Origin: Nitrospirota bacterium
Lineage (GTDB): Bacteria > Nitrospirota > Thermodesulfovibrionia > Thermodesulfovibrionales > SM23-35
NCBI GenBank assembly: GCA_013388435.1
Contig: JACAFE010000079.1
Span: 1 to 62,615, forward strand
DNA length: 62,615 nucleotides
Direction: 5' to 3'
Under the pieces are notes generated by a model. It was not told the origin of the DNA, made no database searches, and saw only the letters and a list, made by a program, of their open reading frames with translations. Below, piece after piece: positions 26,424 through 50,707 of the stretch (positions are counted from its first letter, which is position 1; each line of letters starts with the position of its first letter). The position numbers and the translations under genes were made by a program.

Positions 26424-27833
26424 TCAGGAAGGGTTTATAACTACTCTGTCCCTGCCTGCATGCTTGGCAGCAAACATTGCATTGTCAGCGATATTGATAA
26501 GATCATCGTAATTTCTTATTTTTTTGTTAGTGCTGCAGGCTACTCCTATGCTAACTGTAATATTTATCTTTTTCTTCAGGGCATCAAAATGATGATTTTT
26601 TATAATATTTCTGAGTCTTTCAGCCTCAACAAAGGCTCCTTTTTCATCTGTCTGTGGTAAAAGTAAAATAAATTCCTCACCGCCATATCTCGCAAATATA
26701 TCAGACCTTCTTGTATGCATTTTCACGAGCTGAGCAAATTCACGTAATATAATATCGCCTACTCTATGTCCGAAAGTATCATTTATTCTCTTAAAATAAT
26801 CTATATCAAACATCATGCAACTCAAAGGCAAACGGTACCTTTCGGATCTGCTGAATTCCTCTTCAATTCTATTGTAGAAATATCTGATATTGTATATTCC
26901 TGTTAAATAATCTGTAATCGCAAATTTTTCAAGTTTTGATTTTTCCAGATTGAGATTTTCATAAAGAAAGGCATTATAAAGGGAAGTTGCAGAAGCATTT
27001 GCGAGTGCAAGACACATTTTTATTTCTTTATCAGTGAAAGTATGTTTTTTCCTTGAAGTTCTTAAAAGAAGGGTTCCAATTATTTCATCATAGAAAATTA
27101 CAGGAATTACGACTATTGAGCGGATACCTACAGTTTTTATGATATCCTGTACCTCTTTCATCAAAGGGTCTTTCGAGGCATCTTTAACAACAATCATCTC
27201 CCTTGAATTAAGGACTTTTCTTATTTCAGGATATTTTCTTAAATCAATTCTTATGTTGGTGATTTTTGGATCTTCATAAGTTGAGATAACATTAGCATAC
27301 TGAGGATCAATAGAATTTATACTGAGAATTGAACATCTGTCAACTTTTATAATCTCGGCAAGTTTTCTTACGATTAGATATAAAACTTCATGCGGATCAA
27401 GTGTTGATGAAAACAAAGTGGCAAGTTCAACAACTGCATGATGATTATTGCCACATTCGTAAAGGGTTTCAATCCACTTTTTTCCTACAGATATTACCCC
27501 GAGTTTATTTTCCAGATCATCCTTATGAAAAGGACTTATAAGATAACATTCTACATCAGATTTAACTATAGTATGAATACCCTGAGTAATATTTTTAGAT
27601 ACTAAAGCAATAACAGGGTACTTTTGTTTAAGTTCCTGAATTTCTTCTAATCCATAAGGGCTATCCGTTAAAATAGCAACTATTTTCTTTTTAAAAGATA
27701 ACTCTTTTTTTAATGAGTTTGAGCTTCTAATAAACTTTGCATTATAATTCTGATTGTTCTTAAAGAAAGATTTCAAGAATGTATTTACTTCTTTATCATT
27801 GCTGTAAATTACAACTTCTTTTTTATTTCCCAT
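26424..27833 (-). CDS. Diguanylate cyclase (receiver-like, GAF and GGEEF domains)
   Basis: TDYLTG, DIDYFKRINDTFGH, RRSD I-site, RYGGEEF; central GAF domain. Confidence 0.93.
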   Translation of the reverse strand: MGNKKEVVIYSNDKEVNTFLKSFFKNNQNYNAKFIRSSNSLKKELSFKKKIVAILTDSPYGLEEIQELKQKYPVIALVSKNITQGIHTIVKSDVECYLISPFHKDDLENKLGVISVGKKWIETLYECGNNHHAVVELATLFSSTLDPHEVLYLIVRKLAEIIKVDRCSILSINSIDPQYANVISTYEDPKITNIRIDLRKYPEIRKVLNSREMIVVKDASKDPLMKEVQDIIKTVGIRSIVVIPVIFYDEIIGTLLLRTSRKKHTFTDKEIKMCLALANASATSLYNAFLYENLNLEKSKLEKFAITDYLTGIYNIRYFYNRIEEEFSRSERYRLPLSCMMFDIDYFKRINDTFGHRVGDIILREFAQLVKMHTRRSDIFARYGGEEFILLLPQTDEKGAFVEAERLRNIIKNHHFDALKKKINITVSIGVACSTNKKIRNYDDLINIADNAMFAAKHAGRDRVVINPS

Positions 27834-36880: not shown

Positions 36881-38224
36881 TTAAGGTATTTGTATATTGA
36901 ATCCTTTTATTTTGCGATGAAGATTGCTTCTTTCTACTTCAAGAACTTCTGCGGTCTTTGATATATTCCAGCTATTTTCCTCAAGTTTTCTAATAATAAA
37001 ATCTTTCTCAAAAGCTTCTTTTGCTTCTTTTAAAGTATTAAAAGAGAAATAATCCAGATGTATGTTTTCTTTCAAGAAAATATTTTTGGGCATAATGATT
37101 TCAGAAGGTGTCATAATTACAAGTCTTTCGATTACATTTCTCAATTCTCTGACATTACCCGGCCAGTCATATGTAGAGAGTAATTCTAACCCCTCATTTG
37201 TGATTTTCTTTGGCTTTTTACCGTATTCATCAGCAAAAAACTGAAGGAAATGTTCAACAAGTTCTGGAATATCTTCTTTCCTTTCCCTTAGCGGAGGCAC
37301 ATGAATAGGTATTACATTTAGTCTGAACAATAGGTCTTCTCTGAAAGTGCCCTTTTTTACTTCTTCAAAAAGATCTTTATTTGTGGCAGCTATAATCCTG
37401 ACGTCAACCTTGATATTTTTACTTCCACCAACTCTCTGGAATTCCTGTGTTTCGATAATACGCAGTACTTTTGACTGAGTTGATAGCGACATATCTCCAA
37501 CTTCGTCAAGAAATAATGTTCCTTCATCAGCAAGCTCAAATTTCCCTTTTTTACGTTCGAATGCTCCGGTAAAAGAACCTTTCTCATGACCGAATAATTC
37601 ACTTTCTATAAGTTCCTGAGGAATTGCAGCGCAATTCATTTCAATAAATGGCTTATCCACTCTCGGGCTGTTTTCATGCAGAAGATGTGCAACAAGCTCC
37701 TTTCCCGAACCGCTTTCTCCGAGTATTAATACTCTGCTGTTGCTTTTAGCTGCCATATCAATTTGCTCTTTTAAATTCTGGATTTTTTTAGAACTTCCGA
37801 CAAGTTTCCATTTTTTTGTAATGTCCTCTTTTAAAGCCCTGTTTTCAAGCTCTAATATTCTTTTTTCGAGAGCCAGTTTTGTTACCAGAAGAACTCTTTC
37901 GAGTGAAAGAGGTTTTTCGAGAAAATCATAGGCGCCCGAGCGTGTTGCTTTTACGGCGAGTTCAATGTTTGCATGCCCAGATATCATTACAACAGGCATG
38001 GTTGGATTCAGGGATTTTAGTTCTTTCATGGTTTCTATGCCATCAATCCCGGAGAGCCATACGTCAAGAAAAACAATATCAGGCGAATTTTCCTTCAAAA
38101 GTTTAATGGCTTCTTCTCCTGATGACGCTGTAATTACATCATAGCCTTCATCTTTGAATATATCCGAGAGTGTTTCCCTGATCCCTTCCTCATCATCTAC
38201 TATCAGTACAAGCTTATCTGTCAT
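36881..38224 (-). CDS. ntrX: Sigma54-interacting response regulator, NtrX-like
   Basis: REC (VDDE, LDVW, ISGH, KP), AAA+ (GESGSGKE, GSFTGA, LFLDE, WPGNVREL), Fis-type HTH. Confidence 0.88.
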   Translation of the reverse strand: MTDKLVLIVDDEEGIRETLSDIFKDEGYDVITASSGEEAIKLLKENSPDIVFLDVWLSGIDGIETMKELKSLNPTMPVVMISGHANIELAVKATRSGAYDFLEKPLSLERVLLVTKLALEKRILELENRALKEDITKKWKLVGSSKKIQNLKEQIDMAAKSNSRVLILGESGSGKELVAHLLHENSPRVDKPFIEMNCAAIPQELIESELFGHEKGSFTGAFERKKGKFELADEGTLFLDEVGDMSLSTQSKVLRIIETQEFQRVGGSKNIKVDVRIIAATNKDLFEEVKKGTFREDLLFRLNVIPIHVPPLRERKEDIPELVEHFLQFFADEYGKKPKKITNEGLELLSTYDWPGNVRELRNVIERLVIMTPSEIIMPKNIFLKENIHLDYFSFNTLKEAKEAFEKDFIIRKLEENSWNISKTAEVLEVERSNLHRKIKGFNIQIP

Positions 38225-40243
38225 CTATATCTCCTTTATTGGAATCTCTATTCTAAAAACTGAACCTTTTGGTATATTCTCTCTCACAGTTATTTTCCCG
38301 CCGTGTTCTTTAATAATTCTGTTTGCTATTGCAAGACCGAGCCCTGTGCCGCCTTTTCTTGTTGAAAAATTAGGTTGAAAAAGTCTTCCCATATCAGTTG
38401 TTTGAATTCCTGTTCCTGTATCTGCAATTTCAACAGAAAGATTATTCAATTCTGAATTGAAATCAATAACAACATCAATAACTCCGCTACCAGACATTGC
38501 CTGTATTGCGTTATCAAATATATTAATAAGAACCCTCTTGAATTGTTCTGTGTCAAGTTCAATAGGGGGAATATTATCAGGGATCGAAACATTTATCTTG
38601 ATATTCTTATAGCCATAGTACAGATGAATTACTTCGTCAATAATATTATATAGGATAACTTCCTTCTTTTTTATTTCCGGCATTTTCCCGTATTTTGAAA
38701 AATCGTCAACAAGTTTTTTTAAACTGTCAACCTGTTTGATAATTGTCTGGATAGATTGGGGGAAAGTTTTTTCAAAATCTTTATCTTTGTTAATCCATTT
38801 TTTCATCATACGTTCAGTTGCAAGTTTTATAGGCGTTAAAGGATTTTTGATTTCGTGAGCTATTTTTTTTGCAGCATCCTGCCATGTTAGAGCTTTTTGA
38901 GCTTCTATAGCTTCTGTAATATCATCAAATACAACAAGCATTCCGATATATTTTTCATTGTCTTTAAGACTTGTTATGAAAATGTTAAGAGATAGTTTTT
39001 TATCTCCAATCATTGTGCTAACCTGTTTTTTAACAGGCCTGAACTGTCTTCCCTCTATGCTTTTAACTATTTCTTTTATCTCCTGTGAATCAATTTTTGA
39101 TAAGAGTTCATTGTAATTTTTATTTATAACTTCATCATGTCTCAATCCGAGAATCATGCATGCTGCTCCATTTATCATGGAAATTTCCCCTTTAATATCA
39201 AGCATAATAACGCCGGAATTTATGTTATCAAGTATATTTTTAAGGTACAGGTACGCTGACTGAATGGATTCTTTGCCTGCCTTTAAATTTTTTACCATTT
39301 CATTAAAAGAATTTATGAGAATGCCCATTTCATCTTCTTTTTCTAAATTGATGTGTACATCGAGATTCCCGGAAGATACCTGCTGATTGGCAAAAACGAG
39401 CATCTGTATCGGATCGGTTATATTTCTTGAGATCCTTAAAGCAACCCAGAGCGCAAAGAATACAACTATTGTAGTGATAAAACCGAGTATCAGAAGATAA
39501 TTCGCTTTTACAGGAACTTTTAAGGATTCTAAAGTAAGGTAATTTTCATAAGCATCATTGATTTTCTCTGCGTTCTTTGTAATTTTTGAAGGCATATAAG
39601 TCTCTACAACCACTACTTTTACAACCCTGCCATTTTTATACTCTGGCACAGCAGCCCTTATAAGGTCTCTATTATCTCCTGAAACAACTTCAGCTCCTTC
39701 TTTGCCCTCGAATGCAGCTTTAATAGTTTCGGTTGCTTCTTCGGGAAGATGGTAAATATATTTTACTGTGTAGTTTTTCTGGAAATTTTTTTCATTATAT
39801 ATCTGTTCTCTGGCAAAAATAAGAGCATTTTGTTTTTCATTTTCATAGACTGTTTTTGCGATTTCAACCGAGCTTTCAATCGGAATCTTGATTTGAGGAA
39901 TAAACCAGCGATCTATATAATTTGTGATTAAACCGCTTGCTATAAAAAACAAAAGAGCAGAAGGAATCAAGGTTATAATTACAAATATTGTAACAAGTCT
40001 TGTTTTGAATTTATAACCCGGAACCTGATGTTTTCTCTCAAAAAAAAGTTTCACGAGACTTTTTGCTATGAAAAAAATCAGGACAAGTAGTGCTACAAAA
40101 GTGAGGTTAAAAAGAAGCAGAAGTATAATCTGTGTTGGGAAAGGGATTATTTCATGCCTGACATAGTGGATTTCCAGGGCAAATGATATGATTATAAAAA
40201 TCGCAGACAGAAAAAGAAAAATCTTAAATCTTAACTCTTTCAT
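38225..40243 (-). CDS. ntrY: NtrY-like sensor histidine kinase (TM, HAMP, PAS, HisKA, HATPase)
   Basis: AHEIKNPLTPI H-box, NIFDNA, DTGTG, FSTR, GTGLGL. Confidence 0.88.
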   Translation of the reverse strand: MKELRFKIFLFLSAIFIIISFALEIHYVRHEIIPFPTQIILLLLFNLTFVALLVLIFFIAKSLVKLFFERKHQVPGYKFKTRLVTIFVIITLIPSALLFFIASGLITNYIDRWFIPQIKIPIESSVEIAKTVYENEKQNALIFAREQIYNEKNFQKNYTVKYIYHLPEEATETIKAAFEGKEGAEVVSGDNRDLIRAAVPEYKNGRVVKVVVVETYMPSKITKNAEKINDAYENYLTLESLKVPVKANYLLILGFITTIVVFFALWVALRISRNITDPIQMLVFANQQVSSGNLDVHINLEKEDEMGILINSFNEMVKNLKAGKESIQSAYLYLKNILDNINSGVIMLDIKGEISMINGAACMILGLRHDEVINKNYNELLSKIDSQEIKEIVKSIEGRQFRPVKKQVSTMIGDKKLSLNIFITSLKDNEKYIGMLVVFDDITEAIEAQKALTWQDAAKKIAHEIKNPLTPIKLATERMMKKWINKDKDFEKTFPQSIQTIIKQVDSLKKLVDDFSKYGKMPEIKKKEVILYNIIDEVIHLYYGYKNIKINVSIPDNIPPIELDTEQFKRVLINIFDNAIQAMSGSGVIDVVIDFNSELNNLSVEIADTGTGIQTTDMGRLFQPNFSTRKGGTGLGLAIANRIIKEHGGKITVRENIPKGSVFRIEIPIKEI

Positions 40244-40848
40244 TTAAGTGAGCCGGCTGTGAAATATTTAGATTCTTTTTTTATTTTAAATGAATTTTCG
40301 GATACAAAAAACATAAAATAGCCGAGTATAGGAGGGAGTTTTCTGATTTTTGATTCAGCTGTCACCCTTACAAAATATACGCCATTTTCAATATCTTTAA
40401 TATTCGCAAGTTTTATATTTTCGAAATTTAATGCCCATTGAAGCATGGATTCAAATGATTTAAACCTTTTCCTCACCTGAGATGTTCCGTCATTTGAAGT
40501 TGCTATAAATTCAGTTTTCACAGGATCAACCTTAATTGTTCTTGTGAATGATTTGCCTGCAATAAATTCATCAGGCCACATTTCCCATACTCTGAAGAGA
40601 TCTATGTGAAAGACTAATTCTTTTTTTATTCCATTTTTTATTTCTTCAAGAAATTTGTCATCAAAGGTTATGGAAGTTGTGACATATATTTCATTTTCGT
40701 ATATTTTTACCTCAGGGCCTGAGATTTCGGCAGCTATTAAGCTCGATTGAGACGAAGAAAAAATAAAGATGAGAGCTATAAGAAACAAAATTATATCTTT
40801 CTTAAAACAGTCTATAAATATTTTTTTCATCATTATTCCTATGAACAA
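40240..40848 (-). CDS. DUF4390-like periplasmic protein
   Basis: Signal peptide; IKNGI...F.I.L.R...WPD pattern; overlaps the ntrY start, the usual position for this family. Confidence 0.7.
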   Translation of the reverse strand: MFIGIMMKKIFIDCFKKDIILFLIALIFIFSSSQSSLIAAEISGPEVKIYENEIYVTTSITFDDKFLEEIKNGIKKELVFHIDLFRVWEMWPDEFIAGKSFTRTIKVDPVKTEFIATSNDGTSQVRKRFKSFESMLQWALNFENIKLANIKDIENGVYFVRVTAESKIRKLPPILGYFMFFVSENSFKIKKESKYFTAGSLK

Positions 40849-40945: not shown

Positions 40946-41428
40946 ATGGAGATAAAAACAGTTAAAATTAAAATACCCGAAGGTTGCAATATAATACTCG
41001 GACAGACTCATTTTATAAAAACTATCGAAGACCTTTATGAAATCATTGCAACCACAGTTCCCGGAGCAAAATTTGGGATAGCTTTTAACGAAGCATCAGG
41101 ACCATGTCTTATCAGAACAGAAGGGAATGATAACGACCTTATTAATACATGTGTTGATAATCTTAAAGAGACAGGCGCGGGTCATGTATTTTGTGTTTTA
41201 TTAAAAAATGCTTTCCCGATAAATGTTCTGAATCAAATTAAGAATTGTCCCGAGGTATGCCGCATTTTCTGCGCCACTGCCAATCCGCTTGAGGTTGTAA
41301 TATGTGCTACCGAGCAAGGCAATGGCATTATTGGAGTAATAGACGGTTTTTCACCAAAAGGAGTAGAGACTCCCGGGGATAAAGCTCACAGAAAAGAGTT
41401 TCTGAGAAAAATAGGATATAAACTTTAG
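40946..41428 (+). CDS. Adenosine-specific kinase family protein (PF04008-like)
   Basis: ILGQTHFIKT, FGIAFNEASG, GAGH, FPIN, CATANP, IDGFSP, IGYK. Confidence 0.88.
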   Translation: MEIKTVKIKIPEGCNIILGQTHFIKTIEDLYEIIATTVPGAKFGIAFNEASGPCLIRTEGNDNDLINTCVDNLKETGAGHVFCVLLKNAFPINVLNQIKNCPEVCRIFCATANPLEVVICATEQGNGIIGVIDGFSPKGVETPGDKAHRKEFLRKIGYKL

Positions 41429-41506
41429 TCAATGTTTCAATGAAGATTTTATTTGATATTGGAAAATAATCATTAATATACGTATAACAATTTGGAGGAA
41501 TAAATT

Positions 41507-41824
41507 ATGCTACCAGAACTTAAGTATGATGAAAAAGGGCTTATCCCGGCAATAATTCAGGATGTTAAAACAGGTGAAGTTTTAATGATGGCTTATATGA
41601 ATGAAAAGTCTTTGCAGATGACTGTAGAAACAGGATACACCCATTTCTGGTCTCGTTCGCGGCAAAAATACTGGAAAAAAGGAGAGACATCCGGGCATGT
41701 TCAGGAGGTAAAGGAGATATTATACGATTGTGACGCAGATACTTTGCTTGTCAAGGTAATACAACACGGCTCTGGTGCATGTCACACAGGCAACAGGACA
41801 TGCTTTTACAGAAATATTAAATAG
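41507..41824 (+). CDS. hisI: Phosphoribosyl-AMP cyclohydrolase
   Basis: [26 protein letters not shown]. Confidence 0.97.
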
Positions 41825-41843
41825 ACAGAGTCAGGAGAATGAA

Positions 41844-42005
41844 ATGAGTAAATACAAGTGTTCGGTATGTGGTTATATTTATAATCCCGAAGAAGGAGAC
41901 CCTGATTCAGGAATTTCTCCCGGAACACCTTTTGAAAATCTTCCGAATGATTGGAAATGTCCTGTATGCGGGGCAGAAAAATCAGCATTTGAAAAAATTG
42001 ATTGA
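41844..42005 (+). CDS. Rubredoxin
   Basis: 53 aa; CSVCGYIY...WKCPVCG; CAGGAG RBS before ATG 41844. Confidence 0.96.
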
Positions 42006-42057
42006 TTTTTATAATTGTTCTTAAAATTGTATAATTCGGGTCAGAGGGAGGATTTTT

Positions 42058-43473
42058 ATGTCAGGAAATAAAAGAAAGACATTAAAAAAGACACCAACCT
42101 ATATTATAGGACTTGATGAAATTTTAAATGGCGGATTGCCTCACGGGCGAACTTCGCTTATTTTTGGAACTCCAGGAAATGGTAAAACAGTGATGGGAGT
42201 AGAATTTCTTTATAGAGGGGCTATTAATGGTGAGCCTGGTATTTTTCTCGGTTTTGAAGAAACAGTGAAAACCCTATGCGAAAATGCGCTTACCATGGGT
42301 TTTGATCTTTCATATTTGAAGAAAAAGAATCTAATATTTCTTATGAATGGGCAGATTGAACCTGATGTAATTGTGAGCGGGAAGTTTTCGCTCAAACCAT
42401 TGCTTTCCATTATTTCAGGAAAAGCAAAAGAAATAGGCGCAAAGAGAATTGTTCTGGATGCTCTGGATGTGGTATTTGGTTTATTAGAAAATCCTATTCA
42501 GGTACGTTCGGAATTATATCAGTTAAATCTATGGCTTATGAAGCTCGGACTTACCACACTTATTACTTTAAAACCAAGAGAAGGTTATCCAGGAACTTTG
42601 TTTCAGGATTACTTCTATTCAATATCAGATTGTGTTATCCATCTCGATGTTAGACAATTAGATCAGGTCTCCACAAGAAGATGTCGTGTAGTCAAATATC
42701 GGGGTTCTGATTTTGGAAGAAATGAATATCCTTTTATTATTACAAATAAAGGTATCCGTTTAATTCCGATTACAAAGTTTGACTTGAGGCATAAACCTTT
42801 TGGAGAGAGAATTTCTTCAGGCATTAAAAGACTCGATGAGATGCTCGGAGGAGGCTATCAGAGAGCATCATGTATTCTTTTTGCAGGTGAACCAGGAACA
42901 GGGAAAACTATTCTCGCATCAACTTTTGTTACGCAGATGTGCAAACAAAATGAAAGAGTTCTGTATTTAAGTTTTGAGGAATCACCTGATGCAATTACTC
43001 ATAACGTAACAAGCGTTGGACTAAATCTCGAACGATTTTTAAACTCAGGGAAGCTTTTAATTTATGGAACAATGCCTGAGGCAACCGGTGTTGAAGAACA
43101 TTTAATGAGACTTTTTGACAAAGTTGAAAGCTTTAGCCCACAACATGTGATTATAGATGCCATTTCTGCTTGTGAAAGAATAGGTGGAAAGGAAGCTGCA
43201 TTTGATTATCTTATGCGTATTTTAAATTTCCTGAAGGAAAAAGGAATAACAGTAGTTCTTACAAACCAAACATCAGGGAGAAAATCACAGCTCGAAATAT
43301 CAGGAAATGGAATATCATCCATGGTGGATACCGTCATTTTTATAACATATGTGCATGGTGAGAAAGAGGTTAATAGAACTATTCAGATTCTCAAAGCAAG
43401 AGGATCGAGCCATTCAAATAAAATAAAAGGATTCAGGATAAATGATAGCGGGATAGAGATTTATGATATTTAA
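42058..43473 (+). CDS. kaiC: Circadian clock protein KaiC homolog (two-domain, C-terminally short)
   Basis: CI GTPGNGKT/FEE/KYRGS; CII GEPGTGKT/FEES/KARGS; ISSMVDT phosphosite region. Confidence 0.93.
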   Translation: MSGNKRKTLKKTPTYIIGLDEILNGGLPHGRTSLIFGTPGNGKTVMGVEFLYRGAINGEPGIFLGFEETVKTLCENALTMGFDLSYLKKKNLIFLMNGQIEPDVIVSGKFSLKPLLSIISGKAKEIGAKRIVLDALDVVFGLLENPIQVRSELYQLNLWLMKLGLTTLITLKPREGYPGTLFQDYFYSISDCVIHLDVRQLDQVSTRRCRVVKYRGSDFGRNEYPFIITNKGIRLIPITKFDLRHKPFGERISSGIKRLDEMLGGGYQRASCILFAGEPGTGKTILASTFVTQMCKQNERVLYLSFEESPDAITHNVTSVGLNLERFLNSGKLLIYGTMPEATGVEEHLMRLFDKVESFSPQHVIIDAISACERIGGKEAAFDYLMRILNFLKEKGITVVLTNQTSGRKSQLEISGNGISSMVDTVIFITYVHGEKEVNRTIQILKARGSSHSNKIKGFRINDSGIEIYDI

Positions 43474-43495
43474 ATATTAAGGATTCAGAGAAAAT

Positions 43496-43864
43496 ATGGG
43501 GAGGGATAAATTGGCTGATAGCAAACGGGCTAAAAAGAAAGAAAAATTAGCTAATAAAACTGAGAAAAACAAAAATCTGCTTCATTATAATTTAAGGTTA
43601 TTCATTGCAGGTGATGAACCAAATTCAAAAATGGCAGAAAAAACTTTGAAGGATATATGTGAAAAATACCTTCATGGCAGTTATAAACTCGAAATAATTG
43701 ATGTGACTAAGGATTTTAATATATCACTTGAGGAAAAGGTCTTTTTTGCCCCGACTTTGATTATCGAGACTCCTGAATTTAAATCAAGAATTGTCGGTTC
43801 TCTGAACGATGTTCAAAAGTTACTTGAACTTCTCGGCTTGTCTGAAACAGGAGGGAATAAGTGA
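43496..43864 (+). CDS. kaiB: KaiB-family protein
   Basis: YNLRLFIAG..PNS..A, LEIIDV, APTL, RIVGSL; Lys-rich N-terminal extension. Confidence 0.9.
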   Translation: MGRDKLADSKRAKKKEKLANKTEKNKNLLHYNLRLFIAGDEPNSKMAEKTLKDICEKYLHGSYKLEIIDVTKDFNISLEEKVFFAPTLIIETPEFKSRIVGSLNDVQKLLELLGLSETGGNK

Positions 43865-45672
43865 GCAAGAAGAAGCTAACTTACAAAGAACTACAGGAAA
43901 AGCTCACTCAGGCTGAAGAAGCTATAGAAGCATTACGTTCAGGAAGAGTAGATGTAATACTGGGTGAGAATTGCCCTCTTGTAATTAAGGCAAAACATTT
44001 TGAAGAAGAATCTAAAAAACTAAATGCTGCGATTGAACAGACATCTGATTGGGTTCTTATAACCGACAGGGATGGAACTATTGAATATGTAAATAAAGCT
44101 GTTGAAAGAATATCAGAATATGGCAGAGAAGAACTAATCGGCAAAAATCCAAGAATATTTAAATCAGGAAAACATAATAGAGAATTTTACAAAAATTTAT
44201 GGGACACGATATGTTCCGGTAATACATTTAACGCAATATTGATAAACAGGAAAAAAACAGGAGATTTATTCGAACTGCATTATACAATAACACCCTTAAA
44301 AGACGAAGAAGGTCAAATTCATCATTTTATAGCTACAGCAAAGGATTTAACAGAACAAAAGATTCTTAAAGAACAGATAGAATATATATCGAAATATGAT
44401 ATTTTAACCGGTCTTTATAACAGGAAATATTTTGCACATGAAATTGACGAGTTGGCAGAAGAAGCTCAGAAACAGACAGTTAAATTTGCCGTGGTTGTTG
44501 TTGATATTGATAGATTTACAGCTTTGAATGATACCTTTGGTTTTGAAGCCGGGGATGAAATATTAAAAAGAGCGGGCAGGAGAATTGTCAATAGTATCTG
44601 TGCAGAATGTAAAGTTGCGCGGTTTGAAGCTGACAAATATGGAATACTCCTTTCTGATATAGAAAACCCTGAGGATATAATTTTGGTGCTTGAAAAAATA
44701 AGAAGCAATTTTAATAACTCATTCAAAATTGACAATGAAGATGTATTCCTCTCACTAAGCATGGGCATTTCAATATTCCCTGAAAATGGCAATAGCGCAG
44801 AAAATCTGATAAAAAATGCTGAAGTTGCTCTCTCAAAAGCGAAGTCAGTAAGGTTGAATAACTACCAGTTTTTCGAAGAAGAAATCAATATTAAAACCTC
44901 TGAATTTGTACATATGCAGAGACATTTATTTCACGCGCTCGAGAAAAATGAATTTATTATGCATTATCAACCTTATTTTGATTGTCAGACCCGTGAATTA
45001 AAGGGTTTAGAAGCATTGATCCGCTGGAATAGTCCAAAATTCGGTCTTGTGCTTCCCGGTATGTTTATACCATTTCTTGAAGAAACAGGGATGATACTGG
45101 AAGTTGGAAAATGGATTATAAGAACAGTGTGTAAACAGATTAAGACATGGATAAATAAAGGTTATGAAAAAAATATTGTTCCTGTATATATAAATCTTTC
45201 CTCAACGCAGTTTGCTCAAAAAAATCTTATGGATTTTATAAATGAGACAATAGAACAGACTGGTATAAAACCTGAATATCTCGGATTTGAGATTACTGAA
45301 AGCACATTTATAGAAGATATTGAAAATACAAAAGCTGTTCTTGAAAGTTTCAAACAAAAAGGAATTTCAGTAAATATAGATGACTTTGGAACAGGATATT
45401 CATCACTTAGCAGTTTATGGAAGTTGCCCTTTAATAATTTAAAGATAGATTGTTCTTTTATCAAAGAATTAACAAGTAATCCTGATAATACTTTTATAGT
45501 AATAACAATAATCTCACTTGCCCATAACCTTAATATTAAGACAATCGCCGAAGGAGTTGAGAATGAACTCCAATGGCAGACTCTTCGCATTCTGAAATGC
45601 GATATGGTGCAGGGATACTATTTCAGTAAGCCTTTGTCAGCGGATGAAATTGAGAGATTCCTTAAGAGTTAA
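43861..45672 (+). CDS. PAS / degenerate GGDEF / EAL c-di-GMP phosphodiesterase
   Basis: PAS-PAC (ITDRDG.IEYVN..GKNP); GGDEF position reads EADKY; EAL, INLS, EITE, DDFGTGYSS, LKID, AEGVE and QGYY intact; GTGA overlap with kaiB. Confidence 0.92.
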   Translation: MSKKKLTYKELQEKLTQAEEAIEALRSGRVDVILGENCPLVIKAKHFEEESKKLNAAIEQTSDWVLITDRDGTIEYVNKAVERISEYGREELIGKNPRIFKSGKHNREFYKNLWDTICSGNTFNAILINRKKTGDLFELHYTITPLKDEEGQIHHFIATAKDLTEQKILKEQIEYISKYDILTGLYNRKYFAHEIDELAEEAQKQTVKFAVVVVDIDRFTALNDTFGFEAGDEILKRAGRRIVNSICAECKVARFEADKYGILLSDIENPEDIILVLEKIRSNFNNSFKIDNEDVFLSLSMGISIFPENGNSAENLIKNAEVALSKAKSVRLNNYQFFEEEINIKTSEFVHMQRHLFHALEKNEFIMHYQPYFDCQTRELKGLEALIRWNSPKFGLVLPGMFIPFLEETGMILEVGKWIIRTVCKQIKTWINKGYEKNIVPVYINLSSTQFAQKNLMDFINETIEQTGIKPEYLGFEITESTFIEDIENTKAVLESFKQKGISVNIDDFGTGYSSLSSLWKLPFNNLKIDCSFIKELTSNPDNTFIVITIISLAHNLNIKTIAEGVENELQWQTLRILKCDMVQGYYFSKPLSADEIERFLKS

Positions 45673-45703
45673 AACTCGTTGGAATAAGAAGGAGATTTTA
45701 TAT

Positions 45704-46372
45704 ATGGAAGATTTAAAGCATTCCGAGACATGGAGAGTATTCAGAATTCAATCAGAACTTGTTGAGGGTTTTGAGACTTTAAATGACCTTGGTCCTGCGG
45801 TGGCAATTTTTGGGAGTTCCCGCATGAAGCCAGGCTCACATTATTACAAAAAAGCTGTTGAACTTGGCAGATTTCTTTCGAATTCAGGTTTTTCAGTTAT
45901 AACAGGCGGAGGGCCCGGAATTATGGAAGGCGCCAATAGAGGAGCCAAGAAAGGCAAGGGAAAATCAGTTGGACTGAATATAGAAATTCCGGCAGAACAG
46001 CATCCCAATCCTTATCAGGATATAAATCTTTCTTTCAGATATTTTTTTATCAGAAAACTAATGTTTGTCAAATATTCGATGGCTTTTATTATATTTCCGG
46101 GCGGATTTGGCACAATGGATGAATTGTTCGAGGCATTGACCTTATCTCAAACAAAAAAGATAGGAGTATTCCCTATAATTCTATTTGGTAGCGAATACTG
46201 GTCTGGATTGGTTGAATGGTTCAGATCAACACTTATACCGCACAATACAATTGATGCAAAGGATCTCGGGTTATTCAGTGTTGTTGATGAAGTTCATGAA
46301 GTCTGTGGAATTTTGCAGGAATACAGAAAAGCATATAATCAGGAAATACCCGAATGCAAACAACTAAGATAA
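45704..46372 (+). CDS. LOG family (TIGR00730-like) nucleotide 5'-monophosphate phosphoribohydrolase
   Basis: FGSSR, TGGGPGIME, FFIRK, PGGFGTMDE; ATG 45704 after AAGGAG. Confidence 0.92.
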   Translation: MEDLKHSETWRVFRIQSELVEGFETLNDLGPAVAIFGSSRMKPGSHYYKKAVELGRFLSNSGFSVITGGGPGIMEGANRGAKKGKGKSVGLNIEIPAEQHPNPYQDINLSFRYFFIRKLMFVKYSMAFIIFPGGFGTMDELFEALTLSQTKKIGVFPIILFGSEYWSGLVEWFRSTLIPHNTIDAKDLGLFSVVDEVHEVCGILQEYRKAYNQEIPECKQLR

Positions 46373-46933
46373 TTATTTACGGGGATGTACCATGCGGTAA
46401 TCCACGGGTCTTTCTTTAAGACCTTTATCTGACCATATACCAAGCTTATTTTTACGCGCTGTTGATTGAGCTGCTGTTAATTCATTGACATACTTTACAT
46501 TGGGTGGAAAAGTAAAAAGCATTGCATAACCATTTTCAAGCATTTTTTGATTAATTAACTGCCCGTCAGCAGTTCTTAAATAAGCCAGTAATCTGCCATA
46601 TTTATCTCTTTTATCAATGTCGTATTCAATAGATACTTTCCAGCCCGAAGAACTTATTATAGATTGGAGAAATTCTTTTGATTTTTCGCCCCATGGTTTT
46701 TGTGCCAGTTCAGGTGCATCAATGCCAATTAGCCTTATCTTCTCCTCTTTTTTACCAATTCTCGCGGTAAGTGTATCTCCATCCGCTATTGATAAAACAG
46801 AAACTAAAGAATCTGTAGTCTTATCCTTTGTAGTGCTTATATTTTCATTTATCAGATAAAACACAGCGACAATAATAAAAATTATCGAAGTAAATAGATT
46901 TGCCTTCTTAAACTTTCTATTTTTTATATTCAT
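46373..46933 (-). CDS. Thermonuclease (SNase) family protein, membrane-anchored
   Basis: N-terminal TM helix, DGDT, IRLIGIDAPE, DKYGRLLAY, GIWS. Confidence 0.93.
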   Translation of the reverse strand: MNIKNRKFKKANLFTSIIFIIVAVFYLINENISTTKDKTTDSLVSVLSIADGDTLTARIGKKEEKIRLIGIDAPELAQKPWGEKSKEFLQSIISSSGWKVSIEYDIDKRDKYGRLLAYLRTADGQLINQKMLENGYAMLFTFPPNVKYVNELTAAQSTARKNKLGIWSDKGLKERPVDYRMVHPRK

Positions 46934-46964
46934 AATGCATATTATAAACTTTTGAGGTTATAAT

Positions 46965-48383
46965 ATGCATATGCAATTAATACCGGGACCCGGATATACA
47001 ATCACCATTAGACTTGAAATGCCAAAACAGGTAGGACTTTTTTCTTCTGTAGCTTCTGTTATAAACAAAGTGGGTGGTGATATATGCGCTTCTGATATTG
47101 TGAAAACCAGTAGCAGTTCTGTTTTCAGGGATTTTACTGTAAATGCACGCGATGACGAACATGAAAAGGAAATAATAGAGGCTGTAAAGAAAATTGAAGG
47201 AGTCAGAATAGTACATGTATCTGACAGAACATTTCTTTCCCATCAGGGTGGCAAAATTGAAATACACAACAAGCTCCCGATAAAAGACCGCAATGACCTT
47301 TCAAGAGTTTACACTCCGGGTGTAGCCCGAATATGCATGGCAATTTATAATGACAGACAGAAAGCTTACCGTTATACAATAAAAAGAAATTCTATTGCAA
47401 TCATAACTGATGGCACAGCAGTTCTCGGACTTGGAGACATAGGACCTGAAGCAGCATTGCCTGTTATGGAAGGCAAAGCAATGATATTTAAAGAGTTTGC
47501 AAATATTGATGCTTTTCCTTTGTGCCTTTCCACAAGTAAACCTGATGAAATAGTAAATACGATTATAAACATATCACCCTCATTTGGTGGCATTAATCTC
47601 GAAGATATTTCTGCTCCGAGATGTTTTGTAATTGAGGAGAAACTTAAAAAAGAACTTGATATTCCGGTATTCCATGACGACCAGCACGGCACCGCAGTTG
47701 TGGTGCTCGCTGCTCTATTGAACTCATTAAAAGTAGTTCACAAAAAGATGGAGGATTTAAAGGTTGTTATTTCCGGTGCAGGAGCAGCAGGTATTGCATG
47801 TTGCAAAATATTAATAGAAACAGGTGTGAAAAATATAATTGTCTGTGATACATCAGGCTCGATATATGAAGGCAGAACCAATAACATGAACCCTGCTAAA
47901 AAATGGGTTTCTGAAAATACAAATCAGGATAAATTTAAAGGAAGCCTCCCGGATGCTTTAAGTGGAGCCGATGTTTTTATAGGTGTCTCGACAGGAAATA
48001 TATTAACTGTAGAGGATATTAAGAAAATGGCTGGTGATTCTATTGTTTTTGCGCTTGCCAATCCTGTGCCTGAAATTTCACCTGATGAAGCTTTGCCTTT
48101 TGTAAGAATTATGGCAACAGGAAGGTCTGATTATCCAAATCAGATAAATAATATGCTCTGTTTCCCTGGACTTTTCAGGGGATTGCTTGATTCAAGGGCA
48201 AGAATGGTTAATGAAGAAATCAAACTTGCTGCAGCAAAAGCAATAGCTTCAGTAATAGATGAAAAAGACCTGAGCGAAGATTATATAATACCAAGTATCT
48301 TCAATAAGAGAGTTGTTCAAGCAGTTGCATCTGCGGTTGAAGAAGAAGCATATAGAACAGGAGTTGCAGGAAAAGAGAGATGA
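46965..48383 (+). CDS. NAD(P)-dependent malic enzyme with N-terminal ACT domain
   Basis: YTPGVA, GLGDIG, MEGKA, NLEDI, HDDQHGTA, GAGAAG, ANPVPE, GRSDYPNQINN. Confidence 0.95.
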   Translation: MHMQLIPGPGYTITIRLEMPKQVGLFSSVASVINKVGGDICASDIVKTSSSSVFRDFTVNARDDEHEKEIIEAVKKIEGVRIVHVSDRTFLSHQGGKIEIHNKLPIKDRNDLSRVYTPGVARICMAIYNDRQKAYRYTIKRNSIAIITDGTAVLGLGDIGPEAALPVMEGKAMIFKEFANIDAFPLCLSTSKPDEIVNTIINISPSFGGINLEDISAPRCFVIEEKLKKELDIPVFHDDQHGTAVVVLAALLNSLKVVHKKMEDLKVVISGAGAAGIACCKILIETGVKNIIVCDTSGSIYEGRTNNMNPAKKWVSENTNQDKFKGSLPDALSGADVFIGVSTGNILTVEDIKKMAGDSIVFALANPVPEISPDEALPFVRIMATGRSDYPNQINNMLCFPGLFRGLLDSRARMVNEEIKLAAAKAIASVIDEKDLSEDYIIPSIFNKRVVQAVASAVEEEAYRTGVAGKER

Positions 48384-49177: not shown

Positions 49178-50707
49178 ATGAACACCGTTAAAAACATTCC
49201 TTATATAAGCCCTGAAGATTTGCCGAAAGTGCCATTTGTGATAAACGGCATTTCTTCGAGATTTATCCGCGAGAATAAAATAGTGCCTCTTGAAATGAAA
49301 AACAACATTCTGAAAGTTGTCATGGCAAATCCGGATGATTCTTCTGTAATAGATGCTTTGAGGGTTGCGACATCTTATGATATTGTTGTTTATACTTCAG
49401 ACAAAAATATTCTTGAAGAATATATTTCCCGTTTCTTTGAACAGGAATCGCAAAATATAAACAGGATCATAGAAGACATTGGAGACAGGAGCATAGAATT
49501 TCTCAGGGATGAAGAAGAAGATATAGGCCATCTGAAAGACCTTGCATCAGAAGCGCCGATAATCCGGCTTGTTAATATGCTTATAACGAGAGCTGTTGAA
49601 AGCAGGGCGAGTGATATTCATATTGAACCTTTTGAAGATGAACTTAAGGTGCGTTATCGCATAGACGGAGTTTTGCATGATATTGAATCAACTCCAAAGA
49701 GACTGCAGGCTGCTATTGTATCGAGAATAAAGATTATGGCAAAACTTAATATAGCAGAGAGAAGGCTGCCACAGGACGGGCGCATAAGGCTTAAAATAGG
49801 CGAGAAAGAGCTTGATTTAAGAGTTTCGACAATTCCGGTGTTATACGGTGAAAGTGTTGTTATGAGACTCCTGCATAAAGAAGGAATTGTTATAGACCTG
49901 AACCTTCTCGGATTTCCTGCCCATACTCTTAGTCTGTTCAACCAGTTAATTCAGAAACCGAATGGAATAATTCTTGTGACAGGACCAACTGGAAGCGGGA
50001 AAACCACCACTCTTTATGGTGCGCTTGACAAAATCAATGCACCTGACAAAAAGATTATAACTGTTGAAGACCCTGTTGAATATCAATTAAAGGGAATAAA
50101 TCAAATTCAGGTAAAACCGCAAATAGGGCTTAATTTTGCAAATACTTTGAGGCATATTGTCAGGCAGGACCCTGATATTATCATGATAGGTGAAATCAGA
50201 GATCTTGAGACAGCGGAAATTGCGATTCAATCAGCCTTAACAGGCCATCTGGTATTTTCAACATTGCATACAAATGATGCACCGAGCGCTATTACAAGGC
50301 TGCTTGATATGGGGGTTGAAAATTTTCTTCTTTCATCTACCATAAGAGGAATACTTGCTCAGAGACTTGTCAGAGTTATCTGCCCTGTATGCAAAGAACC
50401 TGATGAATCCATTGCTGATAAAGAACAATTAAGTCTCTTTGGCATTAACAGCTCAGTTCAGATATATCATGGAAAAGGCTGCGAAAAATGTGCTTTTACA
50501 GGATATTATGGCAGGTCAGGAATATTTGAATTGCTTGTTATTGATGATGACATCCGGAAGCTGATTCTGAAAAATGCTGATTCAAATCAAATAAGAGACG
50601 CTGCAAGAAAAAATGGCATGAAAACTCTTCTTGAAGACGGCGGAGACAAAATCAAAGCAGGCGTTACAACCATCAGCGAAGTTCTTAGAGTTACACAGGA
50701 AGCCTGA
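49178..50707 (+). CDS. gspE: Type II secretion/type IV pilus assembly ATPase (GspE/PilB family)
   Basis: ASDIHIEP, RLPQDGR, GPTGSGKTT, EDPVE, GEIRD, STLHTN, CxxC..CxxC. Confidence 0.9.
   Translation: MNTVKNIPYISPEDLPKVPFVINGISSRFIRENKIVPLEMKNNILKVVMANPDDSSVIDALRVATSYDIVVYTSDKNILEEYISRFFEQESQNINRIIEDIGDRSIEFLRDEEEDIGHLKDLASEAPIIRLVNMLITRAVESRASDIHIEPFEDELKVRYRIDGVLHDIESTPKRLQAAIVSRIKIMAKLNIAERRLPQDGRIRLKIGEKELDLRVSTIPVLYGESVVMRLLHKEGIVIDLNLLGFPAHTLSLFNQLIQKPNGIILVTGPTGSGKTTTLYGALDKINAPDKKIITVEDPVEYQLKGINQIQVKPQIGLNFANTLRHIVRQDPDIIMIGEIRDLETAEIAIQSALTGHLVFSTLHTNDAPSAITRLLDMGVENFLLSSTIRGILAQRLVRVICPVCKEPDESIADKEQLSLFGINSSVQIYHGKGCEKCAFTGYYGRSGIFELLVIDDDIRKLILKNADSNQIRDAARKNGMKTLLEDGGDKIKAGVTTISEVLRVTQEA

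Follow-up and report, generated by a model that had tools for sequence, protein, structure and literature searches.

A KaiA-less kaiC-kaiB cassette with a c-di-GMP phosphodiesterase as its putative output in a Nitrospirota genome

How KaiB and KaiC of non-cyanobacterial bacteria relay their state to the cell is the question raised by a kai locus on contig JACAFE010000079.1 (assembly GCA_013388435.1) of a Nitrospirota bacterium, the full 62,615 nucleotides of which are referred to here as the window. On the forward strand, kaiC (positions 42058..43473) is followed by kaiB (43496..43864), by a gene with a GTG start that codes for a PAS-GGDEF-EAL protein, a predicted cyclic di-GMP (c-di-GMP) phosphodiesterase (43861–45672; PDE in the following), and by a LOG-family gene (45704..46372). 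A preliminary description had noted these four co-oriented genes with a 22-nt gap, a GTGA overlap and a 31-nt gap, and the open reading frames (ORFs) as well as the reading of the junctions agree with it. We consider it likely that kaiC, kaiB and the PDE gene form a KaiA-independent Kai cassette of the “KaiC2/KaiB2” type, in which a kinase body was swapped for a c-di-GMP phosphodiesterase while the amino-terminal module of the protein, termed NT here, was kept. Read most economically, the sequences make PDE the putative Kai output, with NT as its putative link to the Kai proteins. Gating of c-di-GMP breakdown by a Kai switch is predicted as the best reading because the trio is co-conserved in seven of seven loci, the PDE gene is translationally coupled to kaiB, and the protein is headed by NT.

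The kaiC-kaiB-PDE arrangement is not a chance one, since the trio is kept, with kaiC-kaiB directly upstream, in all seven loci that encode PDE orthologues of at least 65% identity (65–100%; L013 and the six metagenome loci L164–L169). A survey of the neighbourhoods of this KaiC clade for kaiB plus an EAL gene, which had been proposed in the preliminary description, thus recovers the same order in every orthologue locus, and the tie between PDE and the Kai proteins suggested there is borne out by these loci, by the coupling to kaiB and by the NT heads of third genes elsewhere. The GTG start of the PDE gene overlaps the TGA of kaiB as GTGA, and a GGAGGG motif lies 5 nt 5' of the start; the gap between kaiC and kaiB (43474–43495) measures 22 nt in the ORF listing. 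Across loci, 28 of the 51 junctions scored between kaiB and the NT-encoding gene show a 4-nt overlap as in the window, and both the junctions and the NT head of PDE match the kaiC-kaiB-third-gene layout of other loci.

NT comprises residues 1–60 of PDE (43861..44040, forward strand) and is predicted to consist of a helix (residues 8–26), a β-hairpin (32–41) and a second helix (44–60), which leads into the PAS domain in the AlphaFold2 (AF2) model; this part of the model is of moderate confidence (pLDDT, the per-residue confidence score, of 79, 92, 79, 66 and 73 for successive blocks over residues 1–50). No Pfam or NCBIfam model covers NT, a Foldseek search of the PDB with the NT-PAS model returned PAS/LOV domains only and nothing for the NT part, and no description of the module was found in the full-text searches made, a kind of search that cannot detect a sequence motif. 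Its distribution was surveyed in 80 genome loci encoding relatives of KaiC, with the domains of the window as single queries; six loci end before kaiB and one right after it, so that 73 were evaluable. Residues 1–52 of PDE, used as a phmmer query against 5,048 ORFs (the 80 KaiC loci plus the window), gave 64 matches, all of which are the N-terminus of the gene after kaiB; the single-sequence query detects NT in this place in 63 of the 73 evaluable loci. A profile built from 58 sequences raised the count to 70 of 73, of which 57 loci had themselves supplied rows to the profile and only the extra 13 are new. In the genome of the window the profile gave a single significant match (89.3 bits, E 2.9e-25). 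The 401 Nitrospirota genomes scanned contain 26 matches, 18 of them encoded downstream of KaiB on its strand at a distance of no more than 400 nt, and 301 genomes of a second class contain seven matches in six genomes, all with KaiB, six of the seven being located directly after kaiB. A search of 1.84 billion representatives yielded 2,154 matches at E values up to 0.001, the best 150 of which all lie at residues 1–64; a word-index search with the profile, a mode that provides weak evidence, returned 33 proteins, among them an NT-bearing one of Desulfosoma caldarium. Weak, partial NT-like matches (profile positions 17–40, E 7e-5 to 0.06) occur at G000:C53:38613-38672 and in frames of large proteins of about 1045–1125 aa in G033, G029, G305, G371 and G363, genomes in which no KaiB match was found; they probably represent an unrelated helix with a similar motif.

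The region behind NT differs between loci. From 61 complete third genes, 59 were scanned after two near-duplicates had been dropped, nine genes cut by contig ends having been left out. A histidine kinase (HATPase_c) is the output of 47 of the 59 and hence the majority form, an HD-GYP-type domain (HD_5) that of four, GGDEF-EAL that of one (L013, a congener), and seven encode PAS domains only or none/other. The PDE of the window departs from the majority, as it contains a degenerate GGDEF domain (GGDEF*) and an EAL domain instead of HisKA or HATPase_c (Pfam). Twelve of the kinases come from the short set, and in third-gene kinases of 267–280 aa nothing but NT precedes the kinase core. Of 107 proteins of at least 250 aa with NT from the global search, HATPase_c was identified in 80, GGDEF-EAL in one, HD_5 in two and a sigma-54 activator domain in two. 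NT thus accompanies kinases of three HisKA classes as well as HD-GYP, GGDEF-EAL and sigma-54 outputs. An in-frame KaiB::NT-PAS-PAS-kinase-receiver fusion of 925 aa was found in three sources (P0398, P0419 and P0420); its KaiB part comprises residues 22–101, and unfused proteins of 815 aa (P0413 and P0417) belong to the same 90% cluster.

NT rarely occurs elsewhere than in the gene after kaiB and survives swaps of the enzyme, which makes it a concrete candidate for an output interface. Somewhat short of an even chance, we would tentatively place the wider proposal that NT is a universal plug, i.e., a helix/hairpin module of about 50 residues which reads the KaiB-KaiC state and behind which the enzyme is swappable; if true, KaiA-less Kai switches share an output interface that has so far not been described. 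Several further architectures were observed in the course of the survey. In metagenome-assembled genomes (MAGs) of Chloroflexota and others, NT-PAS-(GAF)-HD-GYP proteins are encoded after kaiB (L037, L047 and another two loci from the long set; proteins P0402 and P0403); the NT-HD-GYP proteins are a second, independent route joining Kai to c-di-GMP breakdown. In three Planctomycetota loci (L073, L074 and L083), the gene after kaiB codes for NT and one PAS domain only (185–256 aa, no enzyme domain). Two NT-PAS-PAS-GGDEF-EAL proteins of 760 and 766 aa are encoded in Nitrospirota (L179, G227:C12, and L180, G196:C180), the former following kaiC-kaiB-kaiB and the latter being located off kai; tandem kaiB pairs are recurrent in Nitrospirota.

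The two parts of PDE have different nearest relatives. Over residues 3–59, PDE shares 49% identity with the N-terminus of the L018 kinase, which follows kaiB, and beyond residue 59 the two proteins have only generic PAS similarity in common. Residues 41–602, on the other hand, align without gaps to residues 252–813 of P0024 at 65% identity, a REC-PAS-PAS-GGDEF*-EAL protein which has no Kai link and the GGDEF motif of which is degenerate as well. Among the best 120 relatives of PDE, NT is present in each of the 22 closest clusters and in none of the others, while the five next-closest relatives examined start with a receiver (REC) domain. In the set of nearest relatives, NT therefore occupies the place of a regulatory receiver, and its position in the place of a phospho-receiver in this natural chimera argues that NT is a regulatory input. 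Judged by these alignments, PDE is a chimera of an NT head and a receiver-type PDE body.

In a quick tree of KaiC proteins, with support expressed as SH-aLRT (Shimodaira-Hasegawa-like approximate likelihood ratio test) values only, the four EAL-linked KaiCs are recovered as a single clade (SH-aLRT 99), which is nested with the kinase-linked KaiCs of L015, L018 and L014, whereas the two HD-GYP-linked KaiCs are placed apart from each other. KaiC is present in one of five congeners and in two of 24 family members searched. The KaiC of the window shares 65–68% identity with KaiCs from MAGs that bear the label Deltaproteobacteria or Anaerolineae and 47–48% with two KaiCs labelled Nitrospirae, which fall into a distant clade of the quick tree. 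Vertical inheritance within the Nitrospirota was rejected because of the sparse occurrence of KaiC in congeners and the closer KaiCs in MAGs with other labels; the sequence comparisons point to acquisition by horizontal transfer and one later exchange of the output.

The PAS domain of PDE (44020..44355, forward strand; Pfam PAS/PAS_9) is of the NifL/LOV-like type and possibly binds a flavin. The NCBIfam NifL model matches residues 54–174 (7e-21), and the best Foldseek hit is the FAD-binding PAS domain of NifL (2GJ3; root-mean-square deviation of 1.1 Å over 111 columns, 29% identity), with MmoS (3EWK, 38% identity) also being matched. In the GGDEF domain (44392..44850, forward strand; PF00990), the sequence EADKY stands opposite the GGDEF motif of MorA (PDB 4RNH), which agrees with its having been described as degenerate in the initial account of the stretch. 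No RxxD site is present just upstream of the motif, where the residues read AECK, and R254-F-E-A-D-K259 is invariant in the 10-member PDE clade. A function of this domain as diguanylate cyclase was rejected because of the degenerate active-site motif and the missing RxxD. In the EAL domain (44923..45633, forward strand; PF00563, E 4.6e-73), the EAL motif, N, ExxE, DDFGTGYSS, KxD, EGVE and QGY are all kept with respect to MorA 4RNH, and the signature residues are invariant in the alignment of the 10-member clade. With these positions, which we take to be the catalytic ones, the EAL domain is predicted to be an active c-di-GMP phosphodiesterase.

KaiC consists of 471 aa with two KaiC domains, CI (42094–42771) and CII (42814–43467), both on the forward strand and both detected by PF06745 (E 4e-102). 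It scores 493.6 bits on NCBIfam NF006799 (cut-off 408) and fails the cyanobacterial equivalog TIGR02655 (302.5 bits vs a cut-off of 546). Its best solved relative is KaiC of R. sphaeroides (8DB3/8DBA, E 1.5e-95, residues 10–468 aligned). The Walker A residues (GxxGxGKT) K43/T44 and K283/T284, the glutamate pairs E67/E68 and E307/E308 and the serines S420/S421 are invariant in 27 relatives; S420/S421, which align with S413/S414 of R. sphaeroides KaiC (8DB3 numbering), are predicted to be two adjacent phosphorylatable CII residues. The protein stops just after the CII core and has no C-terminal tail: it ends 1–3 residues beyond the stretch aligned to residue 481 of the Synechococcus chains, which have 519 aa, and the alignment with the 568-aa R. 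sphaeroides protein ends at residue 468, opposite chain residue 463, so that the C-terminal coiled-coil extension of about 100 residues is absent. Most KaiC relatives at 55–65% identity have 545–600 aa, whereas those of the window clade and of several others have 471–506 aa. A cyanobacterial, KaiA-dependent KaiC1 was ruled out by the TIGR02655 score, by the missing A-loop tail and by the lack of KaiA in the genome, and a KaiC2 dodecamer of the R. sphaeroides type by the missing extension, without which the R. sphaeroides route to KaiA-independence is not applicable as such to the KaiC of the window. By analogy, the tail-less KaiC would be expected to have constitutive autokinase activity, as Synechococcus KaiC truncated before the A-loop is reported to do.

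KaiB comprises 122 aa, and its KaiB domain (43595–43834; PF07689, 53.8 bits vs a cut-off of 27) follows a Lys-rich tail of about 30 residues which is predicted to be disordered. The protein remains under the cut-offs of the NCBIfam cyanobacterial equivalogs (57 vs 110 and 145 bits), and its PDB matches are cyanobacterial KaiB (4e-14), R. sphaeroides KaiB (8FWJ, 2.6e-11) and Legionella Lpp1115 (4KUN, 7e-9). The AF2 model shows the order b-a-b-a-b-b-a with a core pLDDT of 84–94, which we take to be the fold-switched, thioredoxin-like topology of KaiB. AF2 tends to favour the fold-switched state of KaiB, and the model is a lead rather than proof for this state.

The host genome comprises 2.15 Mb at 98% completeness, the window being its contig 31. 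The absence of kaiA from the window, as noted in the preliminary description, extends to the whole genome, in which KaiA (PF07688) was not matched. A genome-wide domain search detected one KaiB-type domain, that of the kaiB of the window, so that a SasA-like kinase with a KaiB-like head is not encoded; neither a kaiA nor a sasA elsewhere in the genome accounts for the output. The genome contains 14 GGDEF, 13 PilZ and, above cut-off, 10 HD-GYP-type domains and one EAL domain, which is that of PDE in the kai cassette. A second gene with a GGDEF domain is located in the window at 26445–26921 on the reverse strand (490-aa frame, 158.7 bits), 15 kb upstream. By KaiC, the closest record is a MAG with the label Nitrospirota, at 90% identity. 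The public sequencing runs containing at least half of the sampled words come from hot-spring metagenomes (five runs from four studies), and no RNA run is listed among the public runs matching the stretch.

From these features, the following mechanism can be proposed. KaiC would autophosphorylate on S420/S421 and hydrolyse ATP as dictated by the cellular ATP/ADP state, and KaiA would not be needed since KaiC is without the inhibitory C-terminal tail. KaiB, in its predicted binding-competent, thioredoxin-like fold, would bind one state of KaiC, and the KaiB-KaiC complex would engage the NT module of a dimeric PDE. The helix joining NT and PAS would carry this engagement to EAL activity, the NifL-like PAS domain contributing a second input, probably redox or flavin. 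As output, c-di-GMP would be hydrolysed in a cell whose genome encodes 14 GGDEF and 13 PilZ domains but no further EAL protein. The binding partners, the sign of the regulation, the direction (output vs modulator) and any time-keeping are what we infer here. If NT is the universal plug considered above, the sole EAL phosphodiesterase and thereby a large share of c-di-GMP turnover would be under the control of an ATP/ADP- or time-dependent KaiC together with a redox PAS domain, and since PDE is the sole EAL enzyme of the genome, a Kai-dependent effect on c-di-GMP should be measurable.

Several points weigh against a Kai-gated phosphodiesterase. The 10 HD-GYP-type domains of the genome provide other routes of c-di-GMP breakdown. 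Eight of the 26 Nitrospirota matches of NT and one of the seven in the second class are not beside kaiB; six of these nine are weak and partial, with E values above 1e-5. The NT-PAS-PAS-GGDEF-EAL gene of G196 and a 1003-aa frame with NT in G415 are located away from kai in genomes that possess kai genes elsewhere, and one NT match occurs in a genome without a KaiB match (G314). The counts for NT that are free of circularity are the 63 of 73 obtained with the single sequence and those from the whole-genome scans. KaiB and KaiC of Legionella are said not to interact in two-hybrid assays, so that KaiC2B2 systems need not follow the textbook clock. The enzyme domains of KidA, moreover, are described as dispensable for the clock phenotype in Synechococcus (PMC9478674). 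A protein of this kind may thus have the Kai proteins as its target instead of working downstream of them.

PDE might accordingly be an input or modulator of the Kai switch in the manner of KidA, its NT/PAS part binding KaiB and tuning the cycling of KaiC by redox while the EAL activity runs in parallel, ungated. Its NifL-like sensory PAS domain and the NT-PAS-only proteins encoded after kaiB in the three Planctomycetota loci fit this role. As NT heads a kinase in 47 of 59 third genes and is the sole sensor-side region of those with 267–280 aa, it fits a receiver of signals; the nearest relatives of PDE, moreover, hold a phospho-receiver, which is an enzyme input, at the position of NT, and no EAL signature residue varies within the PDE clade. 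We therefore regard a role of PDE as modulator as unlikely. Marginally less probable again is an explanation in which the three genes are co-expressed only, e.g. as a stress operon, with no physical coupling of their products, NT being a coiled-coil dimerisation cap retained by descent. NT is largely helical in the AF2 model, its conservation could reflect no more than a dimerisation helix passed on together with the gene, and the kai operon of Legionella is reported to be co-transcribed under RpoS and to confer stress resistance, with KaiB and KaiC not interacting. Descent of this kind is difficult to reconcile with the different nearest relatives of NT and the PDE body, which imply that NT was kept, or newly attached, when the domains behind it were exchanged, with its retention in front of kinases of three HisKA classes, HD-GYP, GGDEF-EAL and sigma-54 outputs, with its near-confinement to the position after kaiB, or with the existence of the KaiB::NT-kinase fusion. 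A Kai cassette with PDE as its putative output remains the reading that we prefer.

The cassette ends before the LOG gene. The longest ORF of the latter (PF03641 and TIGR00730 above cut-offs; 144 bits vs 96.35 for TIGR00730) starts at 45644, and the ATG at 45704, which has AAGGAG 9 nt upstream, is the likely start, resulting in the 31-nt gap to the PDE gene; the product contains the motif PGGFGTMDE (PGGxGTxxE). LOG orthologues are present in all five congeners. In the four congeners lacking kai, they are 77–79% identical and adjoin the same SNase gene in every case; the genes of FdhD and of the ATPase of the type II secretion system (T2SS-E) also follow in three of them, those with longer flanks, and a malic enzyme is kept beside the LOG block in two of the four. 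On the left-hand side, a block comprising a sigma-54 regulator, a kinase, DUF4390, adenosine kinase, PRA-CH and rubredoxin ends at the rubredoxin gene in the kai-less genomes G001 and G005, with neither kai nor LOG behind it, which places the trio at the exact junction of two conserved blocks. LOG synteny and the end of the left-hand block thus set the cassette boundary between PDE and LOG. In L168, the one divergent PDE-orthologue locus with room downstream (PDE at 65% identity), the 2.3 kb that follow the PDE gene contain no LOG, and the LOG query, run across the 80 KaiC loci and the window, matched only the window and L013. The functional unit is a set of three genes from which LOG, a neighbour, is excluded, and the proposal of the preliminary description that LOG belongs to the module is not supported. 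That four genes form a module in which LOG tunes the nucleotide pools sensed by KaiC is very improbable, even though LOG is co-oriented, lies 31 nt past PDE with no terminator-like site between and is paired with PDE in the close relatives L013, L164 and L165, since the same LOG neighbourhood exists in four of four congeners without kaiC, the left block ends at rubredoxin in kai-less genomes, and LOG is missing from L168.

A promoter-like sequence, TTTATA-16-TATAAT (42008..42035, forward strand; 10 of 12 positions matched), is located in the 52 nt that separate the rubredoxin gene from kaiC and is a weak, position-based suggestion. Promoter-like sites in the region 41400–47000 number 19 vs 21.3 expected from shuffles, and terminator-like sites four vs 2.9 expected; with counts this close to expectation, the scan favours no transcription unit either way. 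The rubredoxin gene itself (41844–42005, forward strand; 53 aa, NCBIfam 99.6 bits vs a cut-off of 90) ends 52 nt upstream of kaiC and is a neighbour rather than part of the cassette, being the last gene of the left-hand block in kai-less congeners. Upstream, positions 36881–40848 on the reverse strand encode, in a tight operon that is kept in congeners, a receiver-bearing sigma-54 activator, a HAMP-PAS histidine kinase resembling NtrY and a DUF4390 protein. The LOG stop at 46372 abuts that of a convergent SNase-like gene (46373–46933, reverse strand), and the zero spacer leaves no room for a terminator between them. A T2SS/type IV pilus-type ATPase with an MshEN N-terminal domain is encoded at 49178–50707 (forward strand) in the right-hand block, which is also present in kai-less congeners. 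MshEN is a c-di-GMP-binding domain, and the ATPase is a possible c-di-GMP receptor 3.5 kb from PDE.

The gene layout as such is already known. Nearly all non-cyanobacterial kaiC-kaiB clusters considered by De Luca 2011 (PLoS One, PMC3164672) have a kinase or GGDEF/EAL gene immediately downstream and resemble the window in the order kaiC-kaiB-signalling gene, the lack of kaiA and the SS phosphosites. The RtaNt domain described there is KaiB/SasA-like and belongs to a KaiB-less kaiC-kinase context, in which it differs from the NT module of the window, and the comparison made in that paper is one of gene context.

The kai operon of Legionella pneumophila is, like the locus of the window, a KaiA-less KaiC2B2 system, its KaiB being Lpp1115 (PDB 4KUN), matched at E 7e-9. 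There, kaiB, kaiC and lpp1114 are reportedly transcribed as one unit. Legionella is a gammaproteobacterial pathogen, whereas the window derives from a hot-spring Nitrospirota MAG. The lpp1114 gene, which lies downstream of the Legionella kaiB and next to it, has been treated as the counterpart of lpl1118 of the Lens strain, which is called a c-di-GMP phosphodiesterase (bioRxiv 10.1101/754762).

KidA of Synechococcus elongatus PCC 7942, the PAS domains of which bind fold-switched KaiB (Kim 2022, PMC9478674), resembles PDE in being a PAS-GGDEF-EAL protein and in contacting the Kai system via an N-terminal, non-catalytic part. The preliminary description, which had given the His kinases SasA and CikA as the characterised Kai outputs, is incomplete in this respect, as KidA was left out. 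According to the same report, KidA has four PAS domains and predicted-active GGDEF and EAL domains, is encoded outside the kai operon, works with a KaiA-containing oscillator and binds via PAS-ABC; its authors point to PAS genes that are co-operonic with kaiBC in kaiA-less bacteria. PDE differs in having one PAS domain, a dead GGDEF domain and a distinct head of 60 residues. SasA and CikA are histidine kinases/phosphatases acting on RpaA, the activity of which depends on docking to KaiC or KaiB-KaiC via an N-terminal or pseudo-receiver domain; SasA docks via a KaiB-like fold. NT has no detectable similarity to this KaiB-like domain of SasA.

A KaiC-like protein of P. putida binds the N-terminal PAS region of a neighbouring kinase, as indicated by two-hybrid and co-immunoprecipitation data (bioRxiv 10.1101/2022.01.26.477890), i.e., a KaiC homologue binds the N-terminal region of an adjacent signalling protein as proposed for the window; that case differs in the lack of KaiB, the contact via PAS, the kinase output and the KaiC group. 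The closest solved relative of the KaiC of the window belongs to the hourglass of Rhodobacter (Cereibacter) sphaeroides (Pitsawong 2023, PMC10076222; 8DBA, 8DB3, 8FWI/J), where the C-terminal coiled coil of the 568-aa KaiC joins two hexamers, whereas the protein of the window ends at residue 471. KaiBC of this organism is described as not needing KaiA, with KaiB acting by the ATP/ADP ratio (PMC11372060). The purple-bacterial hourglass offers a mechanism without a defined output, and the Legionella operon a phenotype without a mechanism. To these systems the present locus adds a delimited cassette, the exclusion of LOG, evidence that PDE is a chimera and the context of a sole EAL domain; its value lies in a handle on mechanism, not in gene order.

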